Shown here one piece after another: positions 4,765 through 52,008 of a DNA stretch of 64,000 nucleotides; position 1 is the first letter of the stretch; the number at the start of each line of letters is the position of its first letter. The position numbers and the translations under genes were made by a program. The notes beneath the pieces are model-generated. The model worked only from the letters and a program-made list of their open reading frames with translations. It made no database searches and had not been told where the DNA came from. The stretch is from Opitutia bacterium (GTDB lineage Bacteria; Verrucomicrobiota; Verrucomicrobiia; Opitutales; Opitutaceae), in NCBI GenBank assembly GCA_947475065.1, contig CANJLB010000003.1, positions 20,214 through 84,213 on the forward strand, read 5' to 3'.

Positions 4765-5526
4765 TCAGTTGTGGACCAGTGTGCCGACTTTTTCTCCGAG
4801 TACGGCGCGGCGGATGGTGTGGGGCGCGTTAAGGTCGAACACGAGGATGGGGACATGGTTGTCCTGGCAGAGGGAAAATGCGGTCGAATCCATGACATTG
4901 AGGCGCTGGCGCAGCGCTTCGGCAAAGGTGAGCTCGTCGTAGCGCACGGCATCGGCGTGTTTTTTCGGGTCCTTGTTGTACACACCATCCACTTTGGTGG
5001 CCTTGAGGATGATGTCGGCGCGCAGTTCGGAGGCGCGGAGCGCGGCGGTGGTGTCGGTCGAGAAGTAAGGATTGCCCGTGCCGGCGGCGAAAATGACGAC
5101 CCGGCCTTTCTCAAGGTGGCGCACGGCGCGGCGCATGATGAACGGCTCGGCGATCTGTTCCATCGGGATGGCGCTCTGCACGCGCGTGCTGACGCCCATT
5201 TTTTCGAGGCAGTCCATGAGCGCAAGGCTGTTGATGACCGTGGCGAGCATCCCCATGTAATCACCGGTGGTGCGGTCCACACCGCGCTGCGAGCCGGCGA
5301 GACCGCGGAAGATGTTCCCGCCGCCAATGACGACGCTCACTTGCACGCCGAGTTCGTGGATGCCCTTGATGTCGGCGCAGATGCGCTCAAGCACGGCGGC
5401 GTCAATGGGGTCGGCGGACTTTCCGCGCAACACCTCGCCGGAAAGCTTGAGCACGATGCGCCGGTATTTGACGGCGGATGGGGCGACGGGTGTGGCGGCT
5501 GAGGAAGCCGGGAAAGATTCTGGCAT
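4765..5526 (-). CDS. pyrH: UMP kinase
   Basis: [14 protein letters not shown]...[10 protein letters not shown]...[16 protein letters not shown] are amino-acid-kinase family motifs of PyrH. The start was chosen at the internal Met (MPESFPAS...). This completes the pyrH-frr pair. Confidence 0.9.
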
Positions 5527-5742
5527 GAAGCGAGAAAAGGTCCCGGTGCGGGCGGCGTCAATGCCGGGATGTGTGCCGGCAAATGCCACCCTGTGGTTTC
5601 ATGGTTCGTCCGTCCAGGGTCTTGCCCCGCCGTTGGCGCACGGGAAGTTTCTCCAACCAAACGCCGTGCCTGGGTTTGCCCAGCTCGATTCGGACAAATG
5701 CATGACGAGCCAGCTCGGGCGCGAAATTCGTACGGGCCCATT

Positions 5743-5949
5743 TCAGGGTTTGTAATCGGGGAAATCAAATCCGAAGCGATAGCCGGCCGGAATCGGCTTG
5801 AGATCCAGATAGCGGCCATCGCGCCAGATCTTCAGCGCAATGGGTTCATCCGGGGCCAGATCACGGATCAGCGTATACCGGTTGCCATCAGTGACCGCGT
5901 AGCCCCGTTCCCTCACAATCACGTCGCCTGTTTTGAGCCCGGCATCCAC
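5743..5949 (-). pseudogene. orphan PDZ-domain fragment (possible remnant of an HtrA/PDZ protein)
   Basis: 68-codon ORF (GTG start) reading ...GLKTGDVIVRERGYAVTDGN..., which is PDZ-like. An in-frame TGA lies immediately upstream and the upstream frames are non-protein-like. A GGGGG run at ~5990 is a possible frameshift site. Confidence 0.3.
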
Positions 5950-6262
5950 GACTGTCCGAATGGTTCCGGTCGCACCGGGCGGCGGTCACGGGGGTGCCGC
6001 CGCGCCAGGCGGAGACAGAATTTTCCCGCGCGCCGTTTCCGCACTGGTTCGCCCTCACCGGCTGCGGCTGGCTCATGGCTACGGAGGCGCTGACTGGCTG
6101 CTGGTATGCCTGGCACGAAAGCCGGGTGCCGCCGGCCGTGGCCTGGCATGTGGCCTGGCCGAAAACGGCCGCGCATTTTAAGCAGGGTGAATTCGCGGAA
6201 CGCACGCTTGCGTTGCTTAAGTTCAACGATGGCGCCACCGCCTCCTGGGCGGCGGACGGGGG

Positions 6263-7030
6263 TTAAGACTCATTTGCAACGCCGTTCGCGTAGATTTCGA
6301 CGAGCCTCGCAAACCGGTCGCGCTGCACCTGTGACGGTGTGGGCGAACGATGCACGAGAACCTTCGGCGTTTTCGTTTTCACCAGGAAGACGAGCTCGCT
6401 GCCCGGGCTGGGCTCTCCCGTCGCATCCTCGATGAGGAGCGCGTACAGGGTGAGCTGCACCTTATGCTGCCAGGCTTCGAGCTCAAGTTTGGGCGTGGCA
6501 CCGATCGTCTTGTAATCGACGGCCCGGCGGTCGGCTTTCACGAGGTCGATGATGCCGAGGAGCGGCAGCGCCAGTCCCTGCACCTCGGCCGAGAGTCGCA
6601 CCTCGACGCCCATCGGCTGGGGCTCGATGACGTGCTGCTGATGCGTGAGGAACGCGCTCAGCAAGACCTCGCCCTTCGCTTTCATCTCTGCTTCCTCGTC
6701 GGGCTCGTCCCACGCCACGGTTTTGTTGTCCTCCGGGTGAGCGAAGGCTTCGGCGAACGCGGACAGGACGGCAGGCTCCGAGGCGTCGCCGCCGCGCCAC
6801 CTCGCCTTGTTGTAGTGCTGGATCCCGGCGTGGACGGCTTTGCCGAAGTGGAGCTTCGGTGCCAGCGGCCGCGGCAGGGCCAGCACTTTCTCGAAGTAGA
6901 ACCGCAACCGGCACGAGAGGAAGTTCTTCAGCCTTGAGGGGCTGACGTATTCCAAAGGGTCGGTGCTTTTCTGCTCCGGGATGTGCTTGGCCGTGCCGTT
7001 GGATCCCGGTGGTGAGGCCGGGGCGATCAT
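6263..7030 (-). CDS. PD-(D/E)XK nuclease superfamily protein (Cas4/RecB-like N-terminal motif, no Fe-S cysteines)
   Basis: YVSPSRLKNFLSCRLRFYFEKVL matches the Cas4/AddB N-terminal motif. GIIDLVK (motif II Asp) and VDYKT (motif III D-x-K) follow. The start was chosen at the internal Met so that the ATGA overlaps the upstream gene's stop. The ORF-track N-terminal 72 aa are Arg-rich junk. Confidence 0.65.
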   Translation of the reverse strand: MIAPASPPGSNGTAKHIPEQKSTDPLEYVSPSRLKNFLSCRLRFYFEKVLALPRPLAPKLHFGKAVHAGIQHYNKARWRGGDASEPAVLSAFAEAFAHPEDNKTVAWDEPDEEAEMKAKGEVLLSAFLTHQQHVIEPQPMGVEVRLSAEVQGLALPLLGIIDLVKADRRAVDYKTIGATPKLELEAWQHKVQLTLYALLIEDATGEPSPGSELVFLVKTKTPKVLVHRSPTPSQVQRDRFARLVEIYANGVANES

Positions 7031-7533
7031 CGGCCCCTCCCGGAGTAGGCGGGCCGGCGATCGCGACGCTGACCTTGCCGCTGGTGCGTCTCGATCAGCT
7101 CGTCGATCAACGACGAGGCCTGGAGCTTGTTGAGCTGACGCAAGCCGGTGCCGAACCGCTCCTTTGCGAGCGTCTCGATGTTGGCGATGTCGAGCTGGCT
7201 TTCGCGGATGATCTTCTCGATGAGTTCGCGCTGCTTCGGCGAGCACTGCCAGGTGTCGTCCGTGGCGGGACGGCTGGCCGGGCTGGCAGTGGCCGGCGCG
7301 GACGTGGTGGGGGCGGGCAGGCGACCGGCTGGGGCCGTCTCACCGGGCAGGTGGCCGGCGTTGACGATCTGCGAGTCCACCGAGGCCTGGATGCGCTGGT
7401 AGAGATCGGCGTTGGTTTTCTCGAGCTGGCTGAGGTCGCTTAGCTCGACGCGGAGCGTGACCGAGTGCGAGTGCGACGAATAGTTGGGCAGGCCCACTTT
7501 CTTCGAGTAATTGACTTCAAGGATGACAGACAT
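7027..7533 (-). CDS. hypothetical two-domain protein, translationally coupled to the nuclease
   Basis: 169 aa: MSVILEVNYSKKVGLPNYSSHSHSVTLRVELSD..., then a P/A/T-rich linker, then a helical C-terminal domain (SPKQRELIEKIIRESQLDIANIETLAKERFG...). aaagga sits upstream of the ATG. Its stop overlaps the nuclease start (ATGA). Confidence 0.5.
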   Translation of the reverse strand: MSVILEVNYSKKVGLPNYSSHSHSVTLRVELSDLSQLEKTNADLYQRIQASVDSQIVNAGHLPGETAPAGRLPAPTTSAPATASPASRPATDDTWQCSPKQRELIEKIIRESQLDIANIETLAKERFGTGLRQLNKLQASSLIDELIETHQRQGQRRDRRPAYSGRGR

Positions 7534-7572
7534 GGTTGTCCTTTCGTGCCGACCGCTGGACATGAAACACCC

Positions 7573-7600
7573 CGGCTGCGGTCGGCAGGCCGGGGCGGAT
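7573..7600 (-). terminator. putative intrinsic terminator after the 281-aa ORF
   Basis: On the minus strand: ccccggcctgccgaccgcagccgggg followed by tgttt. Confidence 0.35.
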
Positions 7601-7649
7601 GAGAGGACAGGACGCCCTTACTCAAGGGTATGTAGCACGGATCAGGGGG

Positions 7650-8495
7650 CTATTGCGGGGGGTGCTTGACTATCCATTCGCGGAGCCACTTGAATCTTTT
7701 GAGGGTTGTTCGCCGGACGTTTCCAAAGCCGGAAAGCCGGTAACTACCGCCAGCCGTTCTGAATTGGGGTAGGTCGCGCAAGGCCGGATCGTCTGGTCGA
7801 TCCTGTTGCCAACGGGAACAATCCCATGCCTCAAGGAGTTCCATTTTGCGTGGCACTGCTCGCGGACCACCTTTTTTCGTCTTGGTGATGTTGGCGGCAG
7901 CCTTCAATTTTCTGATTTCAAGGCGCAGCTCATCCATGATGGTTGCTTCCGGCTGCTTCAAATTCAGGACACAAAAAAACGGTGCGGAAAAACAGCCGCC
8001 GTTCTCGATCCTGAATTCAGGCTCAAAAAACCAAGGATCAAGACACGGTTGAGGATGACGGTATGGCTCCATGATCACTCCGTCCGCATTGCCTTCACTC
8101 GCTGTGATCCCGGACTGGGTGAGAAACTCTCGAATTTCTTCCGAGCTTAGCATCGGGAATGGTTTCCCGTAGGGATAAGCCCCAGAGCATCTTGCGATGG
8201 CTTCATACGAATAGGCCAGTTCGACCCCGCCATCCTCCATGTGAGCGATGCTGTTCATGGCCCAAAAATCAACCATTTTGGGCCTCCGTCCCCAGCCGTC
8301 CGTCCACCACCAGACCTGACGGAGATGGTTTTGCAGATCGAAAGAAGCCGACTTTTTCTTGCCGCAAAAAACCTTCTCCAAGTAGTCATACTTGAGGCCA
8401 TCGAGCACACCATGGACGCCACGTTTCTGCTTCACCACGAAAAGCGATGGGAAGCGGACCTTGCCGGCAAGCAAATCTGGGTGCGGAATTGGCAC
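7650..8495 (-). CDS. hypothetical protein (orphan, lower-GC)
   Basis: 281-aa ORF (MPIPHPDLLAGKVRFPSLFVVKQKRGVHGVLDGLKYDYLEKVF...WWWTDGWGRRPKMVDFW...). Local GC is ~52% versus ~65% in the flanks. I recognise no motif. Confidence 0.5.
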   Translation of the reverse strand: MPIPHPDLLAGKVRFPSLFVVKQKRGVHGVLDGLKYDYLEKVFCGKKKSASFDLQNHLRQVWWWTDGWGRRPKMVDFWAMNSIAHMEDGGVELAYSYEAIARCSGAYPYGKPFPMLSSEEIREFLTQSGITASEGNADGVIMEPYRHPQPCLDPWFFEPEFRIENGGCFSAPFFCVLNLKQPEATIMDELRLEIRKLKAAANITKTKKGGPRAVPRKMELLEAWDCSRWQQDRPDDPALRDLPQFRTAGGSYRLSGFGNVRRTTLKRFKWLREWIVKHPPQ

Positions 8496-8688
8496 AAATC
8501 AGGTCGAACAACGGCCGCATCTAGTGTGGCCTTCGCTTCCTGTCAGCACAGTTATCAGCGTCGAATTGGGTCGAATTCGCCCCAAGCACTAGAGTTGGGG
8601 ACTTAGGCGCATTCACACCCTGCCAAACAGCCCTTAATGGGTGAATGCTGTGTGCATATCGTGTGCGGTTTATGCTCTCCTATGAGAT

Positions 8689-8762
8689 TGGTGCGCCGAG
8701 AGGGAATCGAACCCTCCTCTCAAGCTTGGGAAGCTCACGTTCTACCGATGAACTACCGGCGC
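8689..8762 (-). tRNA. tRNA-Gly (anticodon CCC)
   Basis: The rc reads GCGCCGGTAGTTCATCGGTAGAACGTGAGCTTCCCAAGCTTGAGAGGAGGGTTCGATTCCCTCTCGGCGCACCA. It has a 7-bp acceptor stem, D and T arms (GGTTCGATTCC), anticodon loop TTCCCAA and an encoded CCA. Confidence 0.9.
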
Positions 8763-8825
8763 AATTCAGACTGGTCCGCAGCCTGCAGTCTCCGAACAGC
8801 CACGACAAGCCCAAATCGGAGGGCG

Positions 8826-9419
8826 TTACACATACTCCCGCCGCGCCTCCAGCGCGCTTTTTAGCGTCACCGGGTCGGCGTAGAGCACGCCGCCACCGCT
8901 GGGCAGGCCGAAACCGATCCGCGAGACCTTTACCCTGCCGCCGGGCGGCAGGTGCTGTGTCACATAGTGGCAGGTCGCCTCGCCTTCAACGTCGTTGCCC
9001 AGCGCGAGGATCAGCTCACGCACGTCGCCCCCCGCAACGCGCGCCAGCAGCGAGGCGAGATTGAGCTGCTCCGGGCCGACGCCGTGGATGGGCGAGAGCC
9101 GGCCGTGGAGGACATGATAGGCGCCGCGATAGGCGCCCGCCCGCTCGACGGCCACGAGGTCGGGCACCTGCTCGACCACGCACACGACCGAGTGTTCGCG
9201 CCGTTCGTCCGCACAAATCGCGCAGAGCTCGGCTTCGGCCAGATGACCGCAGCGCGCGCAGCGCCGCACGCTTTGCGCCGCCGCCTCCAGCGCTGCGACG
9301 AGCGCGGGCAGCTTGCCGGGTTTCTCCACGAGCAGGTGCAAGGCGATTCGCTCCGCCGAGCGGTAGCCGAGGCCGGGCAGCTGCTTGAGTTGCTGCTGGA
9401 GCTGCTCGAAGGAGGACAT
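8826..9419 (-). CDS. recR: recombination protein RecR
   Basis: HhH motif (LPGLGYRSAERIALHLL), C4 zinc finger (CARCGHLAEAELCAICAD) and Toprim domain. 197 aa. Confidence 0.95.
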   Translation of the reverse strand: MSSFEQLQQQLKQLPGLGYRSAERIALHLLVEKPGKLPALVAALEAAAQSVRRCARCGHLAEAELCAICADERREHSVVCVVEQVPDLVAVERAGAYRGAYHVLHGRLSPIHGVGPEQLNLASLLARVAGGDVRELILALGNDVEGEATCHYVTQHLPPGGRVKVSRIGFGLPSGGGVLYADPVTLKSALEARREYV

Positions 9420-12454: not shown

Positions 12455-15277
12455 ATGAGCCGATTGCCACCTGCCTTTCCCCTCACAGTGCGATATGGAA
12501 TCTTCCGGCCTGCGCGGTTGGTCCCGGCGTTGGTTGCCGTGCTGCTGGCCGGGTTGCCGGCGCGCGGCACGGAACTGCCCAAGGAGGCGCGGCCCTTCAT
12601 CGAGAAAAATTGTTCCGACTGTCATGATGCTGAGACCAAGAAGGGCGGGCTCGATCTGATGGGCCTGAAATACGACGCGCAGGACGCGGCCAATTTTGCA
12701 CTCTGGGCGAAAATCCACGACCGGGTGAAGGGAGGAGAGATGCCGCCGAAGAACGAGCCTCGGCCCGTGGCGGCGGATTTGTCCGCCTTCGTCGGCGGAC
12801 TGGCATCCACACTGACTGCCGATGACCGGGCCATGATCGGGCAGGAGGGAGGGCGCGCGGTGCAGCGCCGGCTCAACCGCTACGAATACGAGAACGCGTT
12901 GCGCGACCTGCTCAACGTGCCGTGGGCGCAGGTGAAGGACAAGCTGCCACTCGACGGCGAGCGCTATGGCTTCAACAAGAGCGCCGAGGCACTGGATGTC
13001 TCGTTTGTGCAGATGGAGCGTTACCTGACCGCCTCCGACTACGCGATGCGGCAGGCGATGGCGGCGGCGTTTGAGCGGCCGGAGAAAACGGTGCGGAAAA
13101 TTTACGCGCGCGACTCCGGCGGCGGCTACCAGCCGCGCGAAAACGGCACTCTGCCGGACCGCCTGGCGTTTCCCGTGCTCGACTCGCATGCGCAGATTGA
13201 CGTGCGCTACGCCCGCGCGCCCAACACCAGCGATGATACGCGCGAGCGCGAGGCGGTGGGCCGGGTTTCCAGCATTTTCAGCGACGCCGGCGGCTACACG
13301 TGGGGCTACACCGCGCCGACCGCCGGGCGCTACCGCATCCGCCTGAAGGGCTATTCCATCTGGGTCAGTGGCGGCGGCATCGGCCGCTGGCTGTTCGACG
13401 GCCAGGGCGCGGCGAAAGTGCCGACCTACTGGCTTCCGGTCTGGCACCGCCCCAACGCCGACGAGGTCTGGCCGGGCCGCAACAACGAGCCCATCGGTTT
13501 CTATGCCTCCAGCACAGGACAGACGCGCCCCATCGGTGTGGGGGATTTTTCGCCGGAGCCTGCCGTCATCGAAATCGAGGCGCAGCTCACGGGCGGTGAG
13601 AGCATCCGCACGGACGCGATGCGGTTTTTCCGCACGCGCGTCAACGGGACCGACGAGCAATATGTCAACCCCCTCGCTACCATGGACGGCATGCCCGGCT
13701 ACGCCGTGCAATGGCTGGAGGTCGAGGGGCCGCTGCCCGATGAAGCGGCGACCGTGGGCTACAAGCTTTTGTTTGGCGACCTGCCGATGCGGCGTCTCGA
13801 CGCGGGCGCGGACGGCGGCGTGCCACTGGAGGGTATTGCAGTGGGCGGCGGCGGGCGCGGCGCGGTAGGCGGGGCTCGTGGCGGCGGTGCCGCACCGGCG
13901 AGGGGCGGGAGGGCTGGGGGCGGTGGCGGGGGCAGGGGAGGCCGAGGCGGCGGGGGTGGCGGAGGACTGATGGTTGATGTCTTCACCGAAAATCCGAGAA
14001 ATGACGCCGAACGGCTGCTGCGCGGCTTCATGCAGCGCGCCTACCGGCGGCCGGTGCAGGAGGAGGACGTGAAACTGTTTCTCGGCCTGTTTGACCGCGA
14101 GTATGACCTCGGTTCCGGTTTCGCGCGCTCCATGCTCACCGCCTACACCGGCGTGCTGGCCTCACCCGGCTTTGTGTTTGTCGCAGAGCAGCCCGGCAAG
14201 CTCGACGACCTGGCGCTCGCAACGCGGCTGTCGCTATTTCTCTGGAACTCCACGCCCGACGCCGCCCTGCGTGCGCGCGCCGAGAAGGGCGAGCTGCACC
14301 AGCCGGCGGTGCTGCGGGCCGAGACCGAGCGCCTGCTCAACGACCCACGCTCCGCCCGTTTCACCGAGGCGTTTACCGACTACTGGCTCGACCTCCGCAA
14401 GATTGACGACACTTCGCCGTCCTCGACCATTTACAACGACTATGAGATGGACGACCCACTCAAGCTCGCCGCCCTGGAAGAGACGCGGCTGTTTTTCGAT
14501 GAACTGGTGCGCGCCGATCTGCCCGCCCGCGACATTGTGGACTCGGACTTCACATACCTGAATGAGCATCTGGCCAACCATTACGGCATCCCTGGCGTGA
14601 AAGGCGCGCAGTTGCGCCGCGTCACGCTCCCGCCCGGCAGCGAGCGCGGCGGACTGATGACGATGGCCAGCGTGCTCAAGGTCACAGCCAACGGCACCAC
14701 CACTTCGCCCGTGCTCCGCGGTCACTGGATCACCGAGCGCATCCTCGGCCTGGAAACACCTCCGCCGCCGCCGGGCATCAAGGCCGTGGACCCCGACATC
14801 CGTGGCGCGGTCACCATCCGGCAGCAGCTCGAAAAACATCGTGCCGACCCGAGCTGCGCGTCATGTCACAACAAGATGGATCCGCCGGGCTTTGCGCTGG
14901 AGAGTTTCGACGTGATGGGCGGCCGCCGCGACCGCTACCGCGCCGTGTCCGATGATGTGAAGCCCGTGCGCGGCTTCGGAATGAGTGGGCAGGCATTCGC
15001 CTTTCACTACGGTCTGCCGGTGGACAGCGCTGGTGCACTGCCTGACGGCCGCACCTACCAGGACGTGCGCGAGTTCAAGAATCTGATCGTGAAGGATGAG
15101 GTGCCCGTGGCACGCAACCTCGCCAAGCAGCTCGTGGTCTTTGCCACCGGTTCACCTGTGCGCTTCAGCGACCGCGAGGAGCTGGAGAAGGTTTTGCAGA
15201 ATGCCGCCGCCAAGCACTACGGCGTCCGCACCCTGGTCCAGGAGCTCGTGCAGAGTGAGCTGTTCCAGGCTAAATGA
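12455..15277 (+). CDS. PSCyt/PSD1 family protein (DUF1587/DUF1592/DUF1595/DUF1588/DUF1553-type, Planctomycete cytochrome-c-like domains)
   Basis: 940 aa with an N-terminal signal, an N-terminal CSDCHD (CxxCH) and a C-terminal CASCHNKMDPPGFALESFD (CxxCH). This architecture is typical of the uncharacterised PVC-superphylum family that pairs with DUF1501. It contains an internal Gly/Arg-rich low-complexity tract. Confidence 0.8.
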   Translation: MSRLPPAFPLTVRYGIFRPARLVPALVAVLLAGLPARGTELPKEARPFIEKNCSDCHDAETKKGGLDLMGLKYDAQDAANFALWAKIHDRVKGGEMPPKNEPRPVAADLSAFVGGLASTLTADDRAMIGQEGGRAVQRRLNRYEYENALRDLLNVPWAQVKDKLPLDGERYGFNKSAEALDVSFVQMERYLTASDYAMRQAMAAAFERPEKTVRKIYARDSGGGYQPRENGTLPDRLAFPVLDSHAQIDVRYARAPNTSDDTREREAVGRVSSIFSDAGGYTWGYTAPTAGRYRIRLKGYSIWVSGGGIGRWLFDGQGAAKVPTYWLPVWHRPNADEVWPGRNNEPIGFYASSTGQTRPIGVGDFSPEPAVIEIEAQLTGGESIRTDAMRFFRTRVNGTDEQYVNPLATMDGMPGYAVQWLEVEGPLPDEAATVGYKLLFGDLPMRRLDAGADGGVPLEGIAVGGGGRGAVGGARGGGAAPARGGRAGGGGGGRGGRGGGGGGGLMVDVFTENPRNDAERLLRGFMQRAYRRPVQEEDVKLFLGLFDREYDLGSGFARSMLTAYTGVLASPGFVFVAEQPGKLDDLALATRLSLFLWNSTPDAALRARAEKGELHQPAVLRAETERLLNDPRSARFTEAFTDYWLDLRKIDDTSPSSTIYNDYEMDDPLKLAALEETRLFFDELVRADLPARDIVDSDFTYLNEHLANHYGIPGVKGAQLRRVTLPPGSERGGLMTMASVLKVTANGTTTSPVLRGHWITERILGLETPPPPPGIKAVDPDIRGAVTIRQQLEKHRADPSCASCHNKMDPPGFALESFDVMGGRRDRYRAVSDDVKPVRGFGMSGQAFAFHYGLPVDSAGALPDGRTYQDVREFKNLIVKDEVPVARNLAKQLVVFATGSPVRFSDREELEKVLQNAAAKHYGVRTLVQELVQSELFQAK

Positions 15278-30642: not shown

Positions 30643-31051
30643 TCACGCCTGGCGTTCACAGGAATTATCGTGCGCATCTGACCTGAAAAAAGCGAGTTGC
30701 GAAAACTAGGGTGTCGGGATGCTTGATCGCCGGAGCCGTGTCCCCATGTTCGCTTCCGTCTGAGTTCTTTCACCGCCTAAGGCGACGCCGCTTCCTCGGC
30801 GTCAACACGGGGGAACCAATATCCGCTGCGCTCTCTCGCGGCGGACGGGGCGAACGGACGCAGGCGACTGCGCCCAAGGTCACTTCCTAGGACCAAGCCC
30901 GTCAGCTAACCTCGTCGGCAATGGGAAGGGTGATCCACTAGGGCTCCCGCCTCGGCGGGATGTCCCCACGGTCGCTCCAACGCAATCGCACCGTCGTGTG
31001 CATACGGGAATACCGTGTGTGCCGCCGGGGCACTTCACGGAGATTAATCCT

Positions 31052-48973: not shown

Positions 48974-50443
48974 ATGGCATATGACTGGCTCAAAGGTGCG
49001 GCAGATGAATACGACGTGATCGTCATTGGCAGCGGGTTGGGCGGCCTCACCGGCGCCAACGTGCTCGCCAAGGCCGGCCACCGCGTCCTCGTACTGGAGC
49101 ACCACTATCAGTTTGGCGGGCTCGCCACGTGGTTCACCCGCAAGGGCGGGCACACTTTCGACATCTCGTTGCACGGCTTTCCCGCCGGCATGATCAAGTC
49201 CTGCCGCAAATACTGGACGAAGGAGATCGCAGACTCGATCGTGCCGCTGAAGGACATCCGCTTCATCAACCCGCAGATGGACGTGTGGACGACTTTCACG
49301 CGCGAGGACTACACCCGCGTGCTCACCGAGCAGTTCAAGCTCGACCGTGCCGAGGTGGAAAAGTTTTACGATCACCTGCGGGCGATGAATTTTTACGACG
49401 ACAACCGCGAGACCACCGGCGAGATGTTTGAGCGGTTTTTTCCCGGCCGGCCCGACGTCCACCGGCTGCTCATGGAACCCATCGCCTATGCCAACGGCTC
49501 GACGACCGACGACCCGGCGATCACCTATGGCATCGTGTTTTCCAACTTCATGGGCGCGGGCGTCTTCACCTTCCGCGGCGGCTCCGACCTCCTCATCGAA
49601 AAAATGGTCGCTGAGCTGAAAAAGAACGGGGTCGAGCTGCGGAAGAAAGTTCTCGTCGAAAAAATCCTGGTCGAGGAGCACGACGGACGGAAAATCGCCT
49701 GCGGCATCGTGGCCAAGGGCGGGCGCGTCATCCGCGCCAAGGCCGTGCTGTCCAACGCCAGCATCAAAAACACCGTGCTCCGTCTGGCCGGCGAGGAAAG
49801 CTTCCTGCCGGCGCATCCCGGCTATGTGGCGGCGGCCAAAGCCGTGCGCATCAACCACAGCTCCTGCCAGGTCTATCTTGGCATCCGGCAGGGCGAGAGC
49901 ATCCCGCATATCGGCGACCTCGTGTTCACCTCGGCTTCGCCGGCGTTCAGCAGCGCGGCCCTCACGGATTTCCACACCACCAGCCGCACCTTTTCGGTCT
50001 ATTACCCGGATACGCGCCCCGGTTCCGGCCGCTACACCGTCGTCGTCTCGCTGAACAGCAATTACGCGGACTGGACGCGGCTTTCCGAAGCGGATTACGA
50101 ACGGGAGAAGACACGGCTCATTGAAGAGTCCCTCACGGCGCTGGAGGGCTATATCCCCGGGGTGCGCGCAAAGATTGACTGGATGGAGGCGGCGACACCG
50201 CGCACCATTGAACGCTACACAACGCATCTCGGCGGCACGTCGTTCGGCACGAAGTTCGAGGGGCTGAAAGTCTCGATGGATTTGCCCGAAAACCTGCCCG
50301 GCCTGTTCCACGCCGGCAGCGTGGGCATCATCATGTCCGGCTGGCTTGGCACCATCAATTATGGCGTCATCACGGCGAACAAGATTGATCGCCATCTGGC
50401 TGCGCTGCAGCGGATGTCAGGTTTGAATGGCGGAAAAAGCTGA
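48974..50443 (+). CDS. FAD-dependent oxidoreductase of the phytoene desaturase (CrtI)/amine-oxidase family
   Basis: N-terminal dinucleotide fold [29 protein letters not shown]. 489 aa. Confidence 0.85.
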
Positions 50444-50715
50444 GAGCTGAGAGCTGGCGGAAAAGCTGAGAGCTGAAAGGCTGAAAGCTGAAATCGGAGG
50501 CTAGGAATCGGAGGGCAGCGTGCTTGCTTCTTGGTTTCTTGGCTTCTGAATTTTACCGTCTGGATTGGTCGGAGGGATCGCGGAAATCGGAGAAGATAAT
50601 GGCTGATGTCGGCCTTGCGGCCTCGGTGACAGAAGCCAGGAGACCGAAGACGGAGGGTGCATCGCGGAGAAGTGGAACGGCGGAAAAGCTGAGAGGCGAG
50701 ATCGAGATCGGATGA
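50436..50715. repeat. intergenic repeat family A, copy R (same modules as L, begins at the CrtI-like stop codon)
   Basis: gctgagagctgagagctgg...gctgaaaggctgaaagctgaaat; cttggtttcttggcttctgaatttt (50530-50553); aatggctgatgtcggccttgcggcctcggtgacagaagccaggag (50598-50642). Confidence 0.55.
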
Positions 50716-50956
50716 ACGCGCTACGAGCAGACCGCCGACCCAGCTGCAAGAAACTGAGATGCACCCAGCGGGTTCGGCACGCCAGTTTGGCCTTGATCAG
50801 ACTTCGGGCCAAGGCCAGCATCAGCCAACTGAAACGGATGGATCACCGCAGCCTCGACGCCGCCTGGTGCCACGCTGCGGAAGCTTGGCTCGTCTGCTAA
50901 GGCCTGATCACCGTCTCCTCAACCCAAAAAAGTGTTACCCTATTATCCTAAACTTT

Positions 50957-51532
50957 ATGAAATATTTAATCATACTTTTAATTGCAATCAACACGTTATC
51001 TCGAGGCGAGTCCATTTCAAGCAACGATGTTCATGGTGAAGCAGTCCAATCTGGCTCGATTTCATGGAAAATTAGTTCTAGCGCCAATAGTTTATATTTT
51101 CTATACGAACTCAGTTCGGATGATTACTTAATTATATCGATAAGCAATGTTTCAAGCAAACCGGTAACTGTTCCTGCTGAAATGAACATAGTCAAAAGAT
51201 GGGACCAAATATTTTATGACAGACCTTTGCTTTTTTTACATTATAAAAATGGAAATGGAGACACTATCGGTGAATATTCTGTAGTGTCTAGTTTTTTAAT
51301 AAACATGAGCGATCCCAGATCTTCGTTTGTTCTTTTGCCGGGAACAACAATATCAGCGAGATATGATCTTTCGCTTGTTTTTCCCCTTAATCGCAAGAGG
51401 GATTTTTTTTCCAAATCTTCCCTGGACCTTTGTTCATATATGATTGAAGTTCTATTGCCTGATGCAACTTTTAAAAGTCTTGTGAAGCAAGATTCGAAAT
51501 GGAAAAACTTTAGCTCAAGAATAAAGTTATAA
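50957..51532 (+). CDS. hypothetical secreted protein encoded in a ~33% GC islet
   Basis: 192-aa ORF, MKYLIILLIAINTLSRGES signal-like N-terminus, Ser/Asn/Ile-rich. GC ~33% versus ~65% genome-wide. No homology is recognisable by eye. Confidence 0.55.
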   Translation: MKYLIILLIAINTLSRGESISSNDVHGEAVQSGSISWKISSSANSLYFLYELSSDDYLIISISNVSSKPVTVPAEMNIVKRWDQIFYDRPLLFLHYKNGNGDTIGEYSVVSSFLINMSDPRSSFVLLPGTTISARYDLSLVFPLNRKRDFFSKSSLDLCSYMIEVLLPDATFKSLVKQDSKWKNFSSRIKL

Positions 51533-51676
51533 AACTATGTTTTGCGTGTCAAAAATCATATCCCGCCCGAATACAAGCGTTATATTGAAAGATATGCGAA
51601 CCGTTGACGCTGTATTAAAAACGCATTCTTGTCTGTTATCATGCATTAATGTCTCCGCAGGGCGCTATGCGTGAGA

Positions 51677-51865
51677 TCATGGCTGCGACGCGCGGTGCCG
51701 GAGCCGGTCGAGGACGGTGGCCGCGATGATAATGCCGCCGGTGACGATCTCCTGCACCGAGTTGGAAAGGCCGAGCTTGGTGCAGCCTTTGGCCACGACA
51801 CTCATAATTAGTGCGCCGACGAGCGTGCCGACGACAGTGCCCTGGCTGGCGGCGGTTTGCCGAAC
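51677..51865 (-). pseudogene. 3' remnant of a second RbsC-type ABC permease gene
   Basis: Minus-strand translation ...[56 protein letters not shown] matches the C-terminus of RbsC-type permeases and of the intact neighbour (52009-53010). There is no room for the N-terminal ~250 aa. Confidence 0.5.
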
Positions 51866-52008
51866 ACGGGACCCGGGCCGAGACGATGCGCAAGGCTGTG
51901 CGCTTCGGCGTGCCTTCCGGCTCAGTGTGAACGGCCTGACGTTTCCGCCTTCGCCTTCAATGCCGCGCCAAAATCAGGAGCGCCGAGCCGAAGCATGGGC
52001 TGGGTGCG

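Follow-up and report, generated by a model that had tools for sequence, protein, structure and literature searches.

A translationally coupled gene pair of integrative mobile elements in Verrucomicrobiota as a candidate recombination module, and its decayed copy in an Opitutia genome

The C-terminal domain (CTD) of the Red-beta annealing protein of phage lambda is a three-helix bundle that binds both lambda Exo and the C-terminal tail of SSB, the protein that binds single-stranded DNA, and that is related in structure to lambda Orf (Caldwell et al. 2019, PMC6393309). The Bet and Exo proteins (s065/s066) of the SXT/R391 integrative and conjugative elements (ICEs) and of IncC plasmids repair double-strand breaks, including those introduced by the CRISPR-Cas system of the host upon entry, and make hybrid elements (PMC2786100, PMC3118119, PMC7498323). 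Genes without known function that are located beside the genes for RecE-like exonucleases proved to encode recombinases (PMC2896510). In this paper, a gene pair of comparable organization is described, which is located at positions 6,263 to 7,533 of a 64,000-nucleotide stretch of DNA from an Opitutia bacterium (contig CANJLB010000003.1; the whole stretch is termed the window). The pair consists of the gene for a small two-domain protein, termed the partner, and the gene for a PD-(D/E)XK nuclease of the Cas4/AddB type. It is the conserved core of integrative mobile elements that are nearly confined to Verrucomicrobiota and of which several are located next to a tRNA gene, and the window holds a decayed remnant of such an element. 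The interpretation that we somewhat favor is that the pair is a lambda-Red-like two-component module, by which the element carries out recombination and the repair of double-strand breaks. The linkage of the two genes, their coupling signals, the family and motifs of the nuclease, the fold similarity of the C-terminal domain of the partner, the context of the element and the truncation of the copy in the window are described in turn.

The pair is encoded on the minus strand of the window by the following features.

7533..7027, minus strand: partner gene, 168 amino acids plus stop codon; unannotated family, putative annealing or mediator subunit.
7030..6263, minus strand: nuclease gene, 255 amino acids; PD-(D/E)XK nuclease of the Cas4/AddB type with intact catalytic residues and a short C-terminus.
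7030-7027, minus strand: ATGA junction, at which the nuclease ATG (7030-7028) overlaps the partner TGA (7029-7027); translational coupling.
7041..7034, minus strand: Shine-Dalgarno-like sequence of the nuclease gene, GGGAGGGG, located in the last codons of the partner gene.

An initial annotation of this DNA had proposed an ATGA-coupled two-gene module of an unlabelled two-domain protein and a Cas4/AddB-type nuclease, and both the junction and the motifs are confirmed. The length of 169 given there for the partner is the number of codons including the stop codon, and the protein consists of 168 amino acids. The start codon of the partner gene is preceded by GAAAGGA at 7545..7539, which is Shine-Dalgarno-like, and the Met residue at 7533 is the start in 40 of the 40 aligned partner homologues. 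The upstream ATG at 7563 is rejected as the start of the partner gene, because all 40 homologues begin at the Met residue at 7533. Likewise, a GTG-extended reading of the nuclease gene (start at 7246, 327 amino acids) is rejected, because 22 of the 22 aligned nuclease homologues begin at the Met residue of the ATGA junction.

A scan of one genome per species gives 257 partner loci, and the locus counts given hereafter rest on the 80 loci that are listed. The nuclease gene is located directly downstream of the partner gene in 77 of the 77 cases in which at least 900 nucleotides are available downstream, and this is the outcome of the cross-genome co-occurrence check that the initial annotation had recommended. 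Of 78 loci, 72 have an ATGA junction and 6 a GTGA junction. All seven contexts found by look-up of the exact protein contain the partner gene followed by a PDDEXK_1 gene with a 4-bp overlap. GGAG or GAGG is present 5-20 nucleotides before the start of the nuclease gene, inside the 3' end of the partner gene, in 55 of the 80 loci. The pairing of the partner with the nuclease is far beyond chance. The bet and exo genes of lambda are arranged in the identical order, with the gene for the annealing protein first, and are also joined by an ATGA junction.

No description of the partner family is given in the libraries searched. A word-seeded search gives 182 clusters of this family at 90% identity, and an exhaustive search with a hidden Markov model (HMM) gives 1,335 clusters at 50% identity with E<=1e-3, 579 of which have E<=1e-10. 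The 150 best clusters listed all contain small proteins (101-262 amino acids). Nearly all of the 80 listed loci are labelled Verrucomicrobiota, apart from a few bins with other labels, and the host labels include Opitutae, Chthoniobacterales/Spartobacteria, Limisphaerales, Akkermansiaceae, Methylacidimicrobium, Cerasicoccus and Prosthecobacter. Some genomes contain several copies of the partner gene. Metagenome-assembled genomes labelled Akkermansia and Akkermansiaceae are among the sources of partner relatives, and these bin labels are not fully reliable.

The partner is divided into four regions, which are encoded on the minus strand as follows.

7345..7533, minus strand: N-domain, residues 1-63; strands at residues 3-13 and 21-31 (beta-hairpin) and a long helix at residues 34-60.
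7255..7344, minus strand: linker, residues 64-93; Pro/Ala/Gly/Thr-rich and disordered, with a length that varies in the family.
7084..7254, minus strand: C-domain, residues 94-150; three-helix bundle with the motifs WxCSxKQxxLI and LNKLQASxLIxEL.
7030..7083, minus strand: tail, residues 151-168; basic and Arg/Gly-rich, containing the codons of GGGAGGGG.

The AlphaFold2 model of the partner has a mean predicted local distance difference test (pLDDT) value of 72. The pLDDT values are 71-88 per 10-residue block in the N-domain, 86-89 in the helices of the C-domain and below 50 at residues 61-92. The loop of the N-domain hairpin contains the conserved motif YSKKxGLPxYSSH, and E30, Q49, V52-D53, G60 and P63 are also conserved in this domain. 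The WxCSxKQxxLI motif of the C-domain starts at W95. The median net charge in the family is -1 for the N-domain, -1 for the C-domain and +5 for the tail. The bases of the GGAGG-type ribosome-binding site of the nuclease gene also encode the conserved ...Y.GR.. end of the tail, and part of the conservation of this end may represent a constraint at the nucleotide level from this site. The initial annotation had anticipated this layout in part. The low-complexity linker is present, being composed of Pro, Ala and Thr with pLDDT values below 50. The N-domain, described there as beta-rich, does contain two strands, but also a long helix. The C-domain is helical as stated, being a three-helix bundle, but its description as helix-turn-helix-like has no support.

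The partner does not match any Pfam, PHROG, PADLOC or NCBIfam model. When 40 members of the partner family are scanned singly against Pfam and PHROGs, only a weak match of DUF3072 to the C-domain, in 12 of the 40 members and with a best E of 0.01, and matches to unnamed PHROGs are found. Comparison of the partner sequence with those of solved structures gives matches at chance level only, such as RadA at E 0.14. When the model is compared with the PDB by Foldseek, chains of the Red-beta CTD are the only matches with a probability above 0.2 (0.69-0.93). As judged from this model, the fold of the C-domain resembles that of the C-terminal domain of lambda Red-beta. When the model is compared with viral models, an Erf protein ('essential recombination function') ranks first, with E 5e-4 and a probability of 0.99 over 186 columns, and a second ERF protein ranks 14th.

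The nuclease belongs to a known family, in which it is not exceptional. It matches PDDEXK_1 of Pfam (PF12705) at residues 29-250 with 90.7 bits (cut-off 22, E 1.9e-25), and among the PHROG exonuclease families it matches phrog_69 'exonuclease' at 2.7e-18. Some of its homologues also match PF01930, which we take to be the Cas4 RecB-like domain. The nuclease has no sequence relative in the PDB. In the alignment of the window protein with 22 homologues (42-84% identity), which consist of 272-316 amino acids, S30, S32, K35, C40, E143, D162, D172, K174, Q192 and Y196 are invariant in all 23 sequences. SPSRLKNFLSC corresponds to residues 30-40 of the window nuclease, and the RecB-type Q192xxxY196 motif and the D172-Y-K174 catalytic core are kept. 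Thus, the SPSRL...C motif and the D and D-x-K core reported in the initial annotation are present and invariant in the family.

At the C-terminus, 22 of the 22 aligned homologues contain P.PG..C.WC..R..C..W.G, and the cysteine motif CxxCx5C is carried by 68 of the 77 complete nuclease homologues. Judging from the sequence, Cys40 and the C-terminal CxxCx5C would represent the four-cysteine arrangement typical of Cas4/AddB iron-sulfur nucleases. The window nuclease ends with ...NGVANES, about 26 amino acids before the cysteine motif, and it therefore keeps Cys40 and loses three of the four ligands of the iron-sulfur cluster. The closest full-length copy of the nuclease is that of the locus L008, with 85% amino-acid identity, and DNA similarity to L008 is lost at approximately 6265, namely at the stop codon of the window nuclease. 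This position defines one further feature.

6258..6270, no strand assigned: deletion breakpoint, at which homology with the full-length L008 copy ends at the nuclease stop codon; right-hand edge of the remnant.

The iron-sulfur cysteines are absent from the window nuclease because its gene is truncated at the 3' end by this breakpoint, and not because the protein is a cluster-free variant. The initial annotation correctly noted that these cysteines are missing, but it missed the truncation and hence the status of the locus as a remnant. In AddB and Cas4, the iron-sulfur cluster supports folding and DNA binding. By analogy with these proteins, the window nuclease, from which three of the four ligands are gone, is probably crippled. 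Elsewhere, 9 of the 77 complete nuclease reading frames lack the cysteine motif, and most of these are visibly truncated or frameshifted. The nucleases without this motif are those of L014, L018, L027, L062, L075, L076, L077, L086 and L092, in all of which the partner reading frame is still detected; in L086, one cysteine of the motif is replaced. The nuclease seems to decay repeatedly across genomes, as it does in the window.

The genes that surround the pair in related genomes were counted downstream in 52 loci with at least 6 kb of downstream sequence and upstream in 44 loci with at least 6 kb of upstream sequence. Two or three tiny open reading frames (ORFs) are located directly 3' of the nuclease gene in related elements. 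Farther downstream, a DnaN-like sliding-clamp protein of approximately 490 amino acids (phrog_947, 1.6e-26; PF02767, 4e-6) is encoded in 28 of the 52 loci, a protein with a WGR domain and an ATP-dependent DNA ligase domain in 27, a well conserved DUF932 protein of approximately 245 amino acids in 21, a RadC-JAB protein in 12 and a DUF3150 protein in 10. At least one of the clamp, ligase, DUF932, RadC and DUF3150 genes is present in 44 of the 52 loci. Upstream of the pair, an integrase-like ORF is present in 10 of the 44 loci and a tRNA gene in 12 (three for Gly, three for Pro and one for each of the others). L004 contains an integrase gene (PF00589) beside tRNA-Lys, L008 contains an integrase gene (phrog_1, 1.2e-18) beside tRNA-Glu, and an integrase gene adjoins a tRNA gene in 4 of 44 further loci. 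The other upstream genes, which include those for a weakly matched winged helix-turn-helix protein (approximately 530 amino acids) and an HD phosphohydrolase, are mostly without assigned function. Genes for conjugation are not identified within the 10-kb flanks examined. In L083, tRNA-Gly is located 301 nucleotides upstream of the partner gene and no integrase gene is detected between them, an arrangement that resembles that of the window; tRNA-Gly is also located upstream of the pair in L043 and L075. Defence-like cargo is observed in related elements or their flanks (L008 15638-20522, L005 1-7617, L007 18039-20516). This cargo comprises an M78 peptidase accompanied by two small genes, a Multi_ubiq/ThiF/BubE set together with HsdM, a DEAD/MZB helicase of 1,765 amino acids together with an SNF2 helicase, and the R subunit of a Type I restriction system.

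In the mechanism that we propose for the intact elements, the Cas4/AddB-type PD-(D/E)XK exonuclease, which would normally carry a four-cysteine iron-sulfur cluster, would resect DNA ends. The partner would be made in a fixed proportion to the nuclease by means of the ATGA stop/start overlap, and it would dock through its Red-beta-CTD-like bundle on the nuclease, on the SSB tail, or on both. The hairpin-helix N-domain and the basic tail would engage the resected single strand and either anneal it or hand it over, and the ligase and the DnaN-like clamp of the element, where present, would finish the repair. The initial annotation had associated such pairs with phage recombination modules. Its assignment to recombination fits the Red-beta-CTD-like domain, the bet-exo-like gene order and junction and the neighbouring clamp, ligase, DUF932, RadC and integrase genes, but its assignment to phages is not supported, because the family is not found in phage and viral collections, and its carrier is read as an integrative mobile element.

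A number of results weigh against this interpretation. None of the 40 partner members matches a family of single-strand annealing proteins (SSAPs; RecT/Red-beta, Erf, Rad52/Sak, Sak4 and Gp2.5) in Pfam or PHROG at E<=10, and none matches the ERF, RecT or Rad52 model of Pfam. Comparison of the partner profile with SSAPs by hhalign, which covered Bet and Erf, gives probabilities of 0.1% for lambda Bet, 0.2% for P22 Erf and 0.07% for a nine-sequence Erf alignment. As judged from these failed profile tests, the partner belongs to neither the RecT/Red-beta nor the Erf family. The matches to the Red-beta CTD have target-normalised TM-scores of 0.67-0.75, but their E-values are approximately 1, and a three-helix bundle is a simple fold. 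The TM-scores of the Erf match are 0.19-0.27, and part of its Foldseek score may be owed to the common domain-linker-domain layout. The N-domain of the partner consists of only about 60 residues and is slightly acidic; known annealing cores consist of 120-180 residues. No member of the partner family is found among viral contigs (2.9 million), phage records (50,697) or plasmids (72,556). Because the window copy is truncated, the function of the family may no longer occur in this genome. Finally, we infer the protein-protein contact, the binding or annealing of single-stranded DNA, the polarity of resection and the role of the pair in the life cycle of the element.

A more specific proposal can be made, which we advance only tentatively. 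The partner may be an unrecognised minimal SSAP, in which a core of approximately 60 residues that handles the DNA is combined with a Red-beta-like docking domain, and which acts with an iron-sulfur exonuclease of the Cas4 type as the native 'Red system' of the mobile elements of Verrucomicrobiota. The small size of the N-domain, its lack of basic character and the lack of an SSAP profile match are also compatible with a partner that is not an annealing protein, but a recombination mediator or adaptor like lambda Orf (NinB). Such a partner would only link the nuclease to DNA coated with SSB or to the clamp and ligase, which are often encoded nearby, and would pass the resected strand on to the RecA protein of the host, so that the pair would remain a module for recombination and repair, but a RecA-dependent one. 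We consider this alternative rather unlikely, because the Foldseek match to Erf spans 186 columns and thus extends beyond the C-domain, because the order and junction of the genes copy those of an SSAP-exonuclease pair, and because the conserved hairpin loop with its KK, Tyr and His residues and the basic tail suggest direct contact with nucleic acid.

The presence of the DnaN-like clamp (phrog_947) and WGR-ligase genes downstream in about half of the loci, with DUF932, RadC and DUF3150 genes nearby, raises the question of whether the pair serves the replication or establishment of the element. DUF932, RadC and DUF3150 are common on conjugative elements and plasmids. The nuclease would then trim flaps or ends of element DNA that is entering the cell or being replicated, in a Dna2- or FEN-like manner together with the clamp and ligase, and the partner would act as its subunit for processivity or targeting. 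However, the clamp and ligase are missing in 22 of the 52 loci while the pair is invariant, and the best match of the C-domain is to the exonuclease- and SSB-binding domain of an annealing protein. A role in replication is considered improbable as compared with the lambda-Red-like role described above.

Still less probable is a role in defence against phages or plasmids, or in abortive infection, with the nuclease as the effector and the partner as the sensor or regulator. The initial annotation had mentioned defence islands as one setting of such pairs. The PADLOC similarities of the nuclease to Cas4 (5.5e-8, partial) and DruK (5.4e-5) and the defence-like cargo near some related elements (Type I restriction-modification subunits, M78 peptidase, Multi_ubiq/ThiF/BubE and large helicases) are consistent with it. 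These similarities are all below threshold, however, and PADLOC is blank for the partner, so that this setting is not upheld. The nuclease scores 30.8 bits with the CRISPR Cas4 equivalog TIGR00372 (cut-off 65), with a match confined to residues 142-205. No CRISPR-typical tandem array is found, and no cas families are present among the annotated neighbour gene clusters. The constant neighbours of the pair, namely the clamp, ligase, DUF932 and integrase genes, are core genes of the element and not variable cargo.

The surroundings of the pair in the window differ from those in the intact elements, and are defined on the left-hand side by two features.

8689-8762, minus strand: tRNA-Gly(CCC), detected by ARAGORN and by Rfam with 61.3 bits; probably the site at which the element was once integrated, and the left-hand edge of the remnant.
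7650-8495, minus strand: orphan ORF of 281 amino acids, located between the tRNA gene and the pair, upstream of the pair on the coding strand.

The DNA that separates tRNA-Gly from the housekeeping genes pyrH, frr and proB contains only three genes, namely the orphan ORF and those for the partner and the truncated nuclease. Because homology stops at the stop codon of the nuclease gene and the C-terminal motif is lost, the window holds a decayed remnant of the element. The element is deleted from the 3' end of the nuclease gene onward, and the integrase, clamp, ligase and DUF932 genes are gone in the window. No homologues of the clamp, the DUF932 protein or the small ORFs are found after the breakpoint, and a tblastn search of 5000-9000 detects no remnant of the integrase gene or of the small ORFs of the element. 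A weak match (E 6e-4) of an ad hoc clamp-like HMM is observed at 12600-12872 on the minus strand, and this is probably a low-complexity region. An att-type direct repeat of the tRNA gene is not found in the window or in the fetched parts of L004 and L008, and the far ends of the intact elements may fall outside the DNA fetched for these two loci. A search for an allele with an empty site by means of the neighbouring RecR protein gives none, and the island is present in all contigs of the species that reach beyond the tRNA gene. Because the arrangement is the same in all of these contigs, the remnant is fixed. When the copies of the window and of L008 are compared, the ratio of nonsynonymous to synonymous substitution rates (dN/dS) amounts to 0.27 in the partner gene and 0.20 in the nuclease gene, which shows past purifying selection and gives no date for the truncation. 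The possibility that the pair is a toxin-antitoxin-like or nuclease-inhibitor pair, in which the small upstream protein neutralises a potentially toxic nuclease and thereby stabilises the element, is the least probable of those considered: the small gene comes first and overlaps by 4 bp, as is typical of type II toxin-antitoxin operons, and in the window the partner is intact and the nuclease truncated, but no toxin-antitoxin family is matched in Pfam or NCBIfam, the nuclease belongs to the Cas4/AddB exonuclease group and to no known toxin family, a long disordered linker with a Red-beta-CTD-like bundle is unlike the antitoxin folds known to us, and the broken nucleases of decayed copies elsewhere fit neutral decay as well as the loss of a toxin.

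The tRNA gene that the initial annotation placed beside the pair is confirmed as tRNA-Gly(CCC). The two other statements made there about the surroundings do not hold. The orphan gene, placed downstream, is the 281-amino-acid ORF and is located upstream on the coding strand. The pair, placed inside an islet of low G+C content, adjoins such a stretch: low G+C content (0.53-0.56) is confined to 7500-8750, namely to the stretch of the 281-amino-acid ORF, and that of the pair is 0.63-0.68, like the rest of the window. The sole match of this ORF in 5.8 billion proteins is its own cluster, the representative of which is 99% identical. It matches no family in Pfam, PHROG, PADLOC or NCBIfam and has no homologue among the related elements, and it occupies the slot that is held by the integrase gene in L008.

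On the other side of the pair, the stretch of approximately 670 nucleotides from the truncated nuclease gene to pyrH looks like deletion debris. It contains an ORF of 68 amino acids (5743-5949, minus strand) with weak similarity to PDZ_2 (E 0.015), and an ORF of 90 amino acids on the opposite strand (5994-6266, plus strand), which abuts the deletion breakpoint and matches no family. The remaining ORFs at the junction likewise match no family. Plus-strand ORFs in this region are not accepted as genes and are treated as shadow ORFs of coding DNA with a high G+C content, because antisense clusters track conserved genes. A scan of 5900-8900 for promoters and terminators gives nothing above the expectation from shuffled sequence. 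Elsewhere in the window, a c-di-AMP riboswitch (ydaO/yuaA leader, RF00379) is detected at 30764-30935 on the plus strand with 52.4 bits (gathering score 38). A second patch of low G+C content is located at 50001-52000 (0.516, as compared with approximately 0.64 for the window) and contains short tandem repeats with periods of 15 and 26, with repeats at 50428-50493. This patch may be another foreign insert.

The window itself is a modest find, namely a fixed and decayed three-gene remnant, and the wider family is the more useful lead, as a candidate for host-matched recombineering. If the partner anneals DNA or mediates annealing, it represents a new and very small family among the few recombinase partners of exonucleases of the phage or ICE type, and the docking domain of Red-beta would be a portable module that also occurs outside the RecT/Red-beta family. 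If it is a minimal annealing protein, it would represent the smallest known architecture of this kind; to our knowledge, an N-domain of 60 residues that is joined to a docking domain of the Red-beta kind has no counterpart among characterised SSAPs. We know of no recombineering tools for Verrucomicrobiota. Because the function of an SSAP requires a match to the SSB tail of its host (PMC6393309, PMC12054835, PMC13490951), a native Verrucomicrobial pair is a rational starting point for recombineering in this phylum, and if the proposed function is correct, the pair would be a host-matched one. The results also outline a family of elements with an integrase, the pair, a DnaN-like clamp, a WGR-ligase, a DUF932 protein, a RadC protein and a DUF3150 protein, which is widespread in Verrucomicrobiota and of which no description was found.

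An S.S..K..L.C motif at the N-terminus, catalytic D, DxK and QxxxY residues and a CxxCx5C at the C-terminus are common to the nuclease family and to Cas4 and AddB. Unlike CRISPR Cas4, however, the nuclease is below the cut-off of TIGR00372 and has no cas or CRISPR context, and unlike AddB, in which the corresponding region is a C-terminal domain, the nuclease family is free-standing and consists of approximately 280 amino acids. As compared with lambda Orf (NinB), the C-domain gives a far weaker match than with the CTD of Red-beta, and the N-terminal domain differs; we know of no dedicated nuclease partner of lambda Orf. The partner resembles the Erf SSAPs (P22 Erf, PF04404) in that a structured N-domain is followed by a C-terminal module, but no exonuclease gene is annotated beside erf in P22, and PF04404 is matched by none of the 40 partner members. 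The C-terminal region of P22 Erf itself (approximately 70 residues; L104 5255-5872) recurs in other phages at 63-78% identity with a match limited to that part, and the C-terminal domains of SSAPs appear to be exchanged as modules.

The pair is similar to lambda Red in that the gene for the smaller recombination partner is located upstream of that for a PD-(D/E)XK exonuclease, with an ATGA overlap. It differs from lambda Red in that the partner has no detectable sequence or profile similarity, in that the nuclease is of the Cas4/AddB type with an N-terminal cysteine and a C-terminal CxxCx5C, and in that the host belongs to Verrucomicrobiota and the carrier is an integrative element and not a known phage. 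Lambda Exo is a toroidal trimer without an iron-sulfur cluster. The annealing domain of Red-beta consists of approximately 177-188 residues (PMC9512822, PMC8303780), as compared with approximately 60 residues for the N-domain of the partner. The SXT proteins have been characterised as an alkaline exonuclease and a lambda-Red-type SSAP (PMC3118119), and the partner described here matches no SSAP family. In SXT/R391 elements and IncC plasmids, as proposed for the elements described here, a mobile element other than a phage carries an exonuclease and an annealing protein for its own use, and with respect to function, Bet and Exo of these elements are the best precedent for a pair of this kind that is carried by an integrative element.

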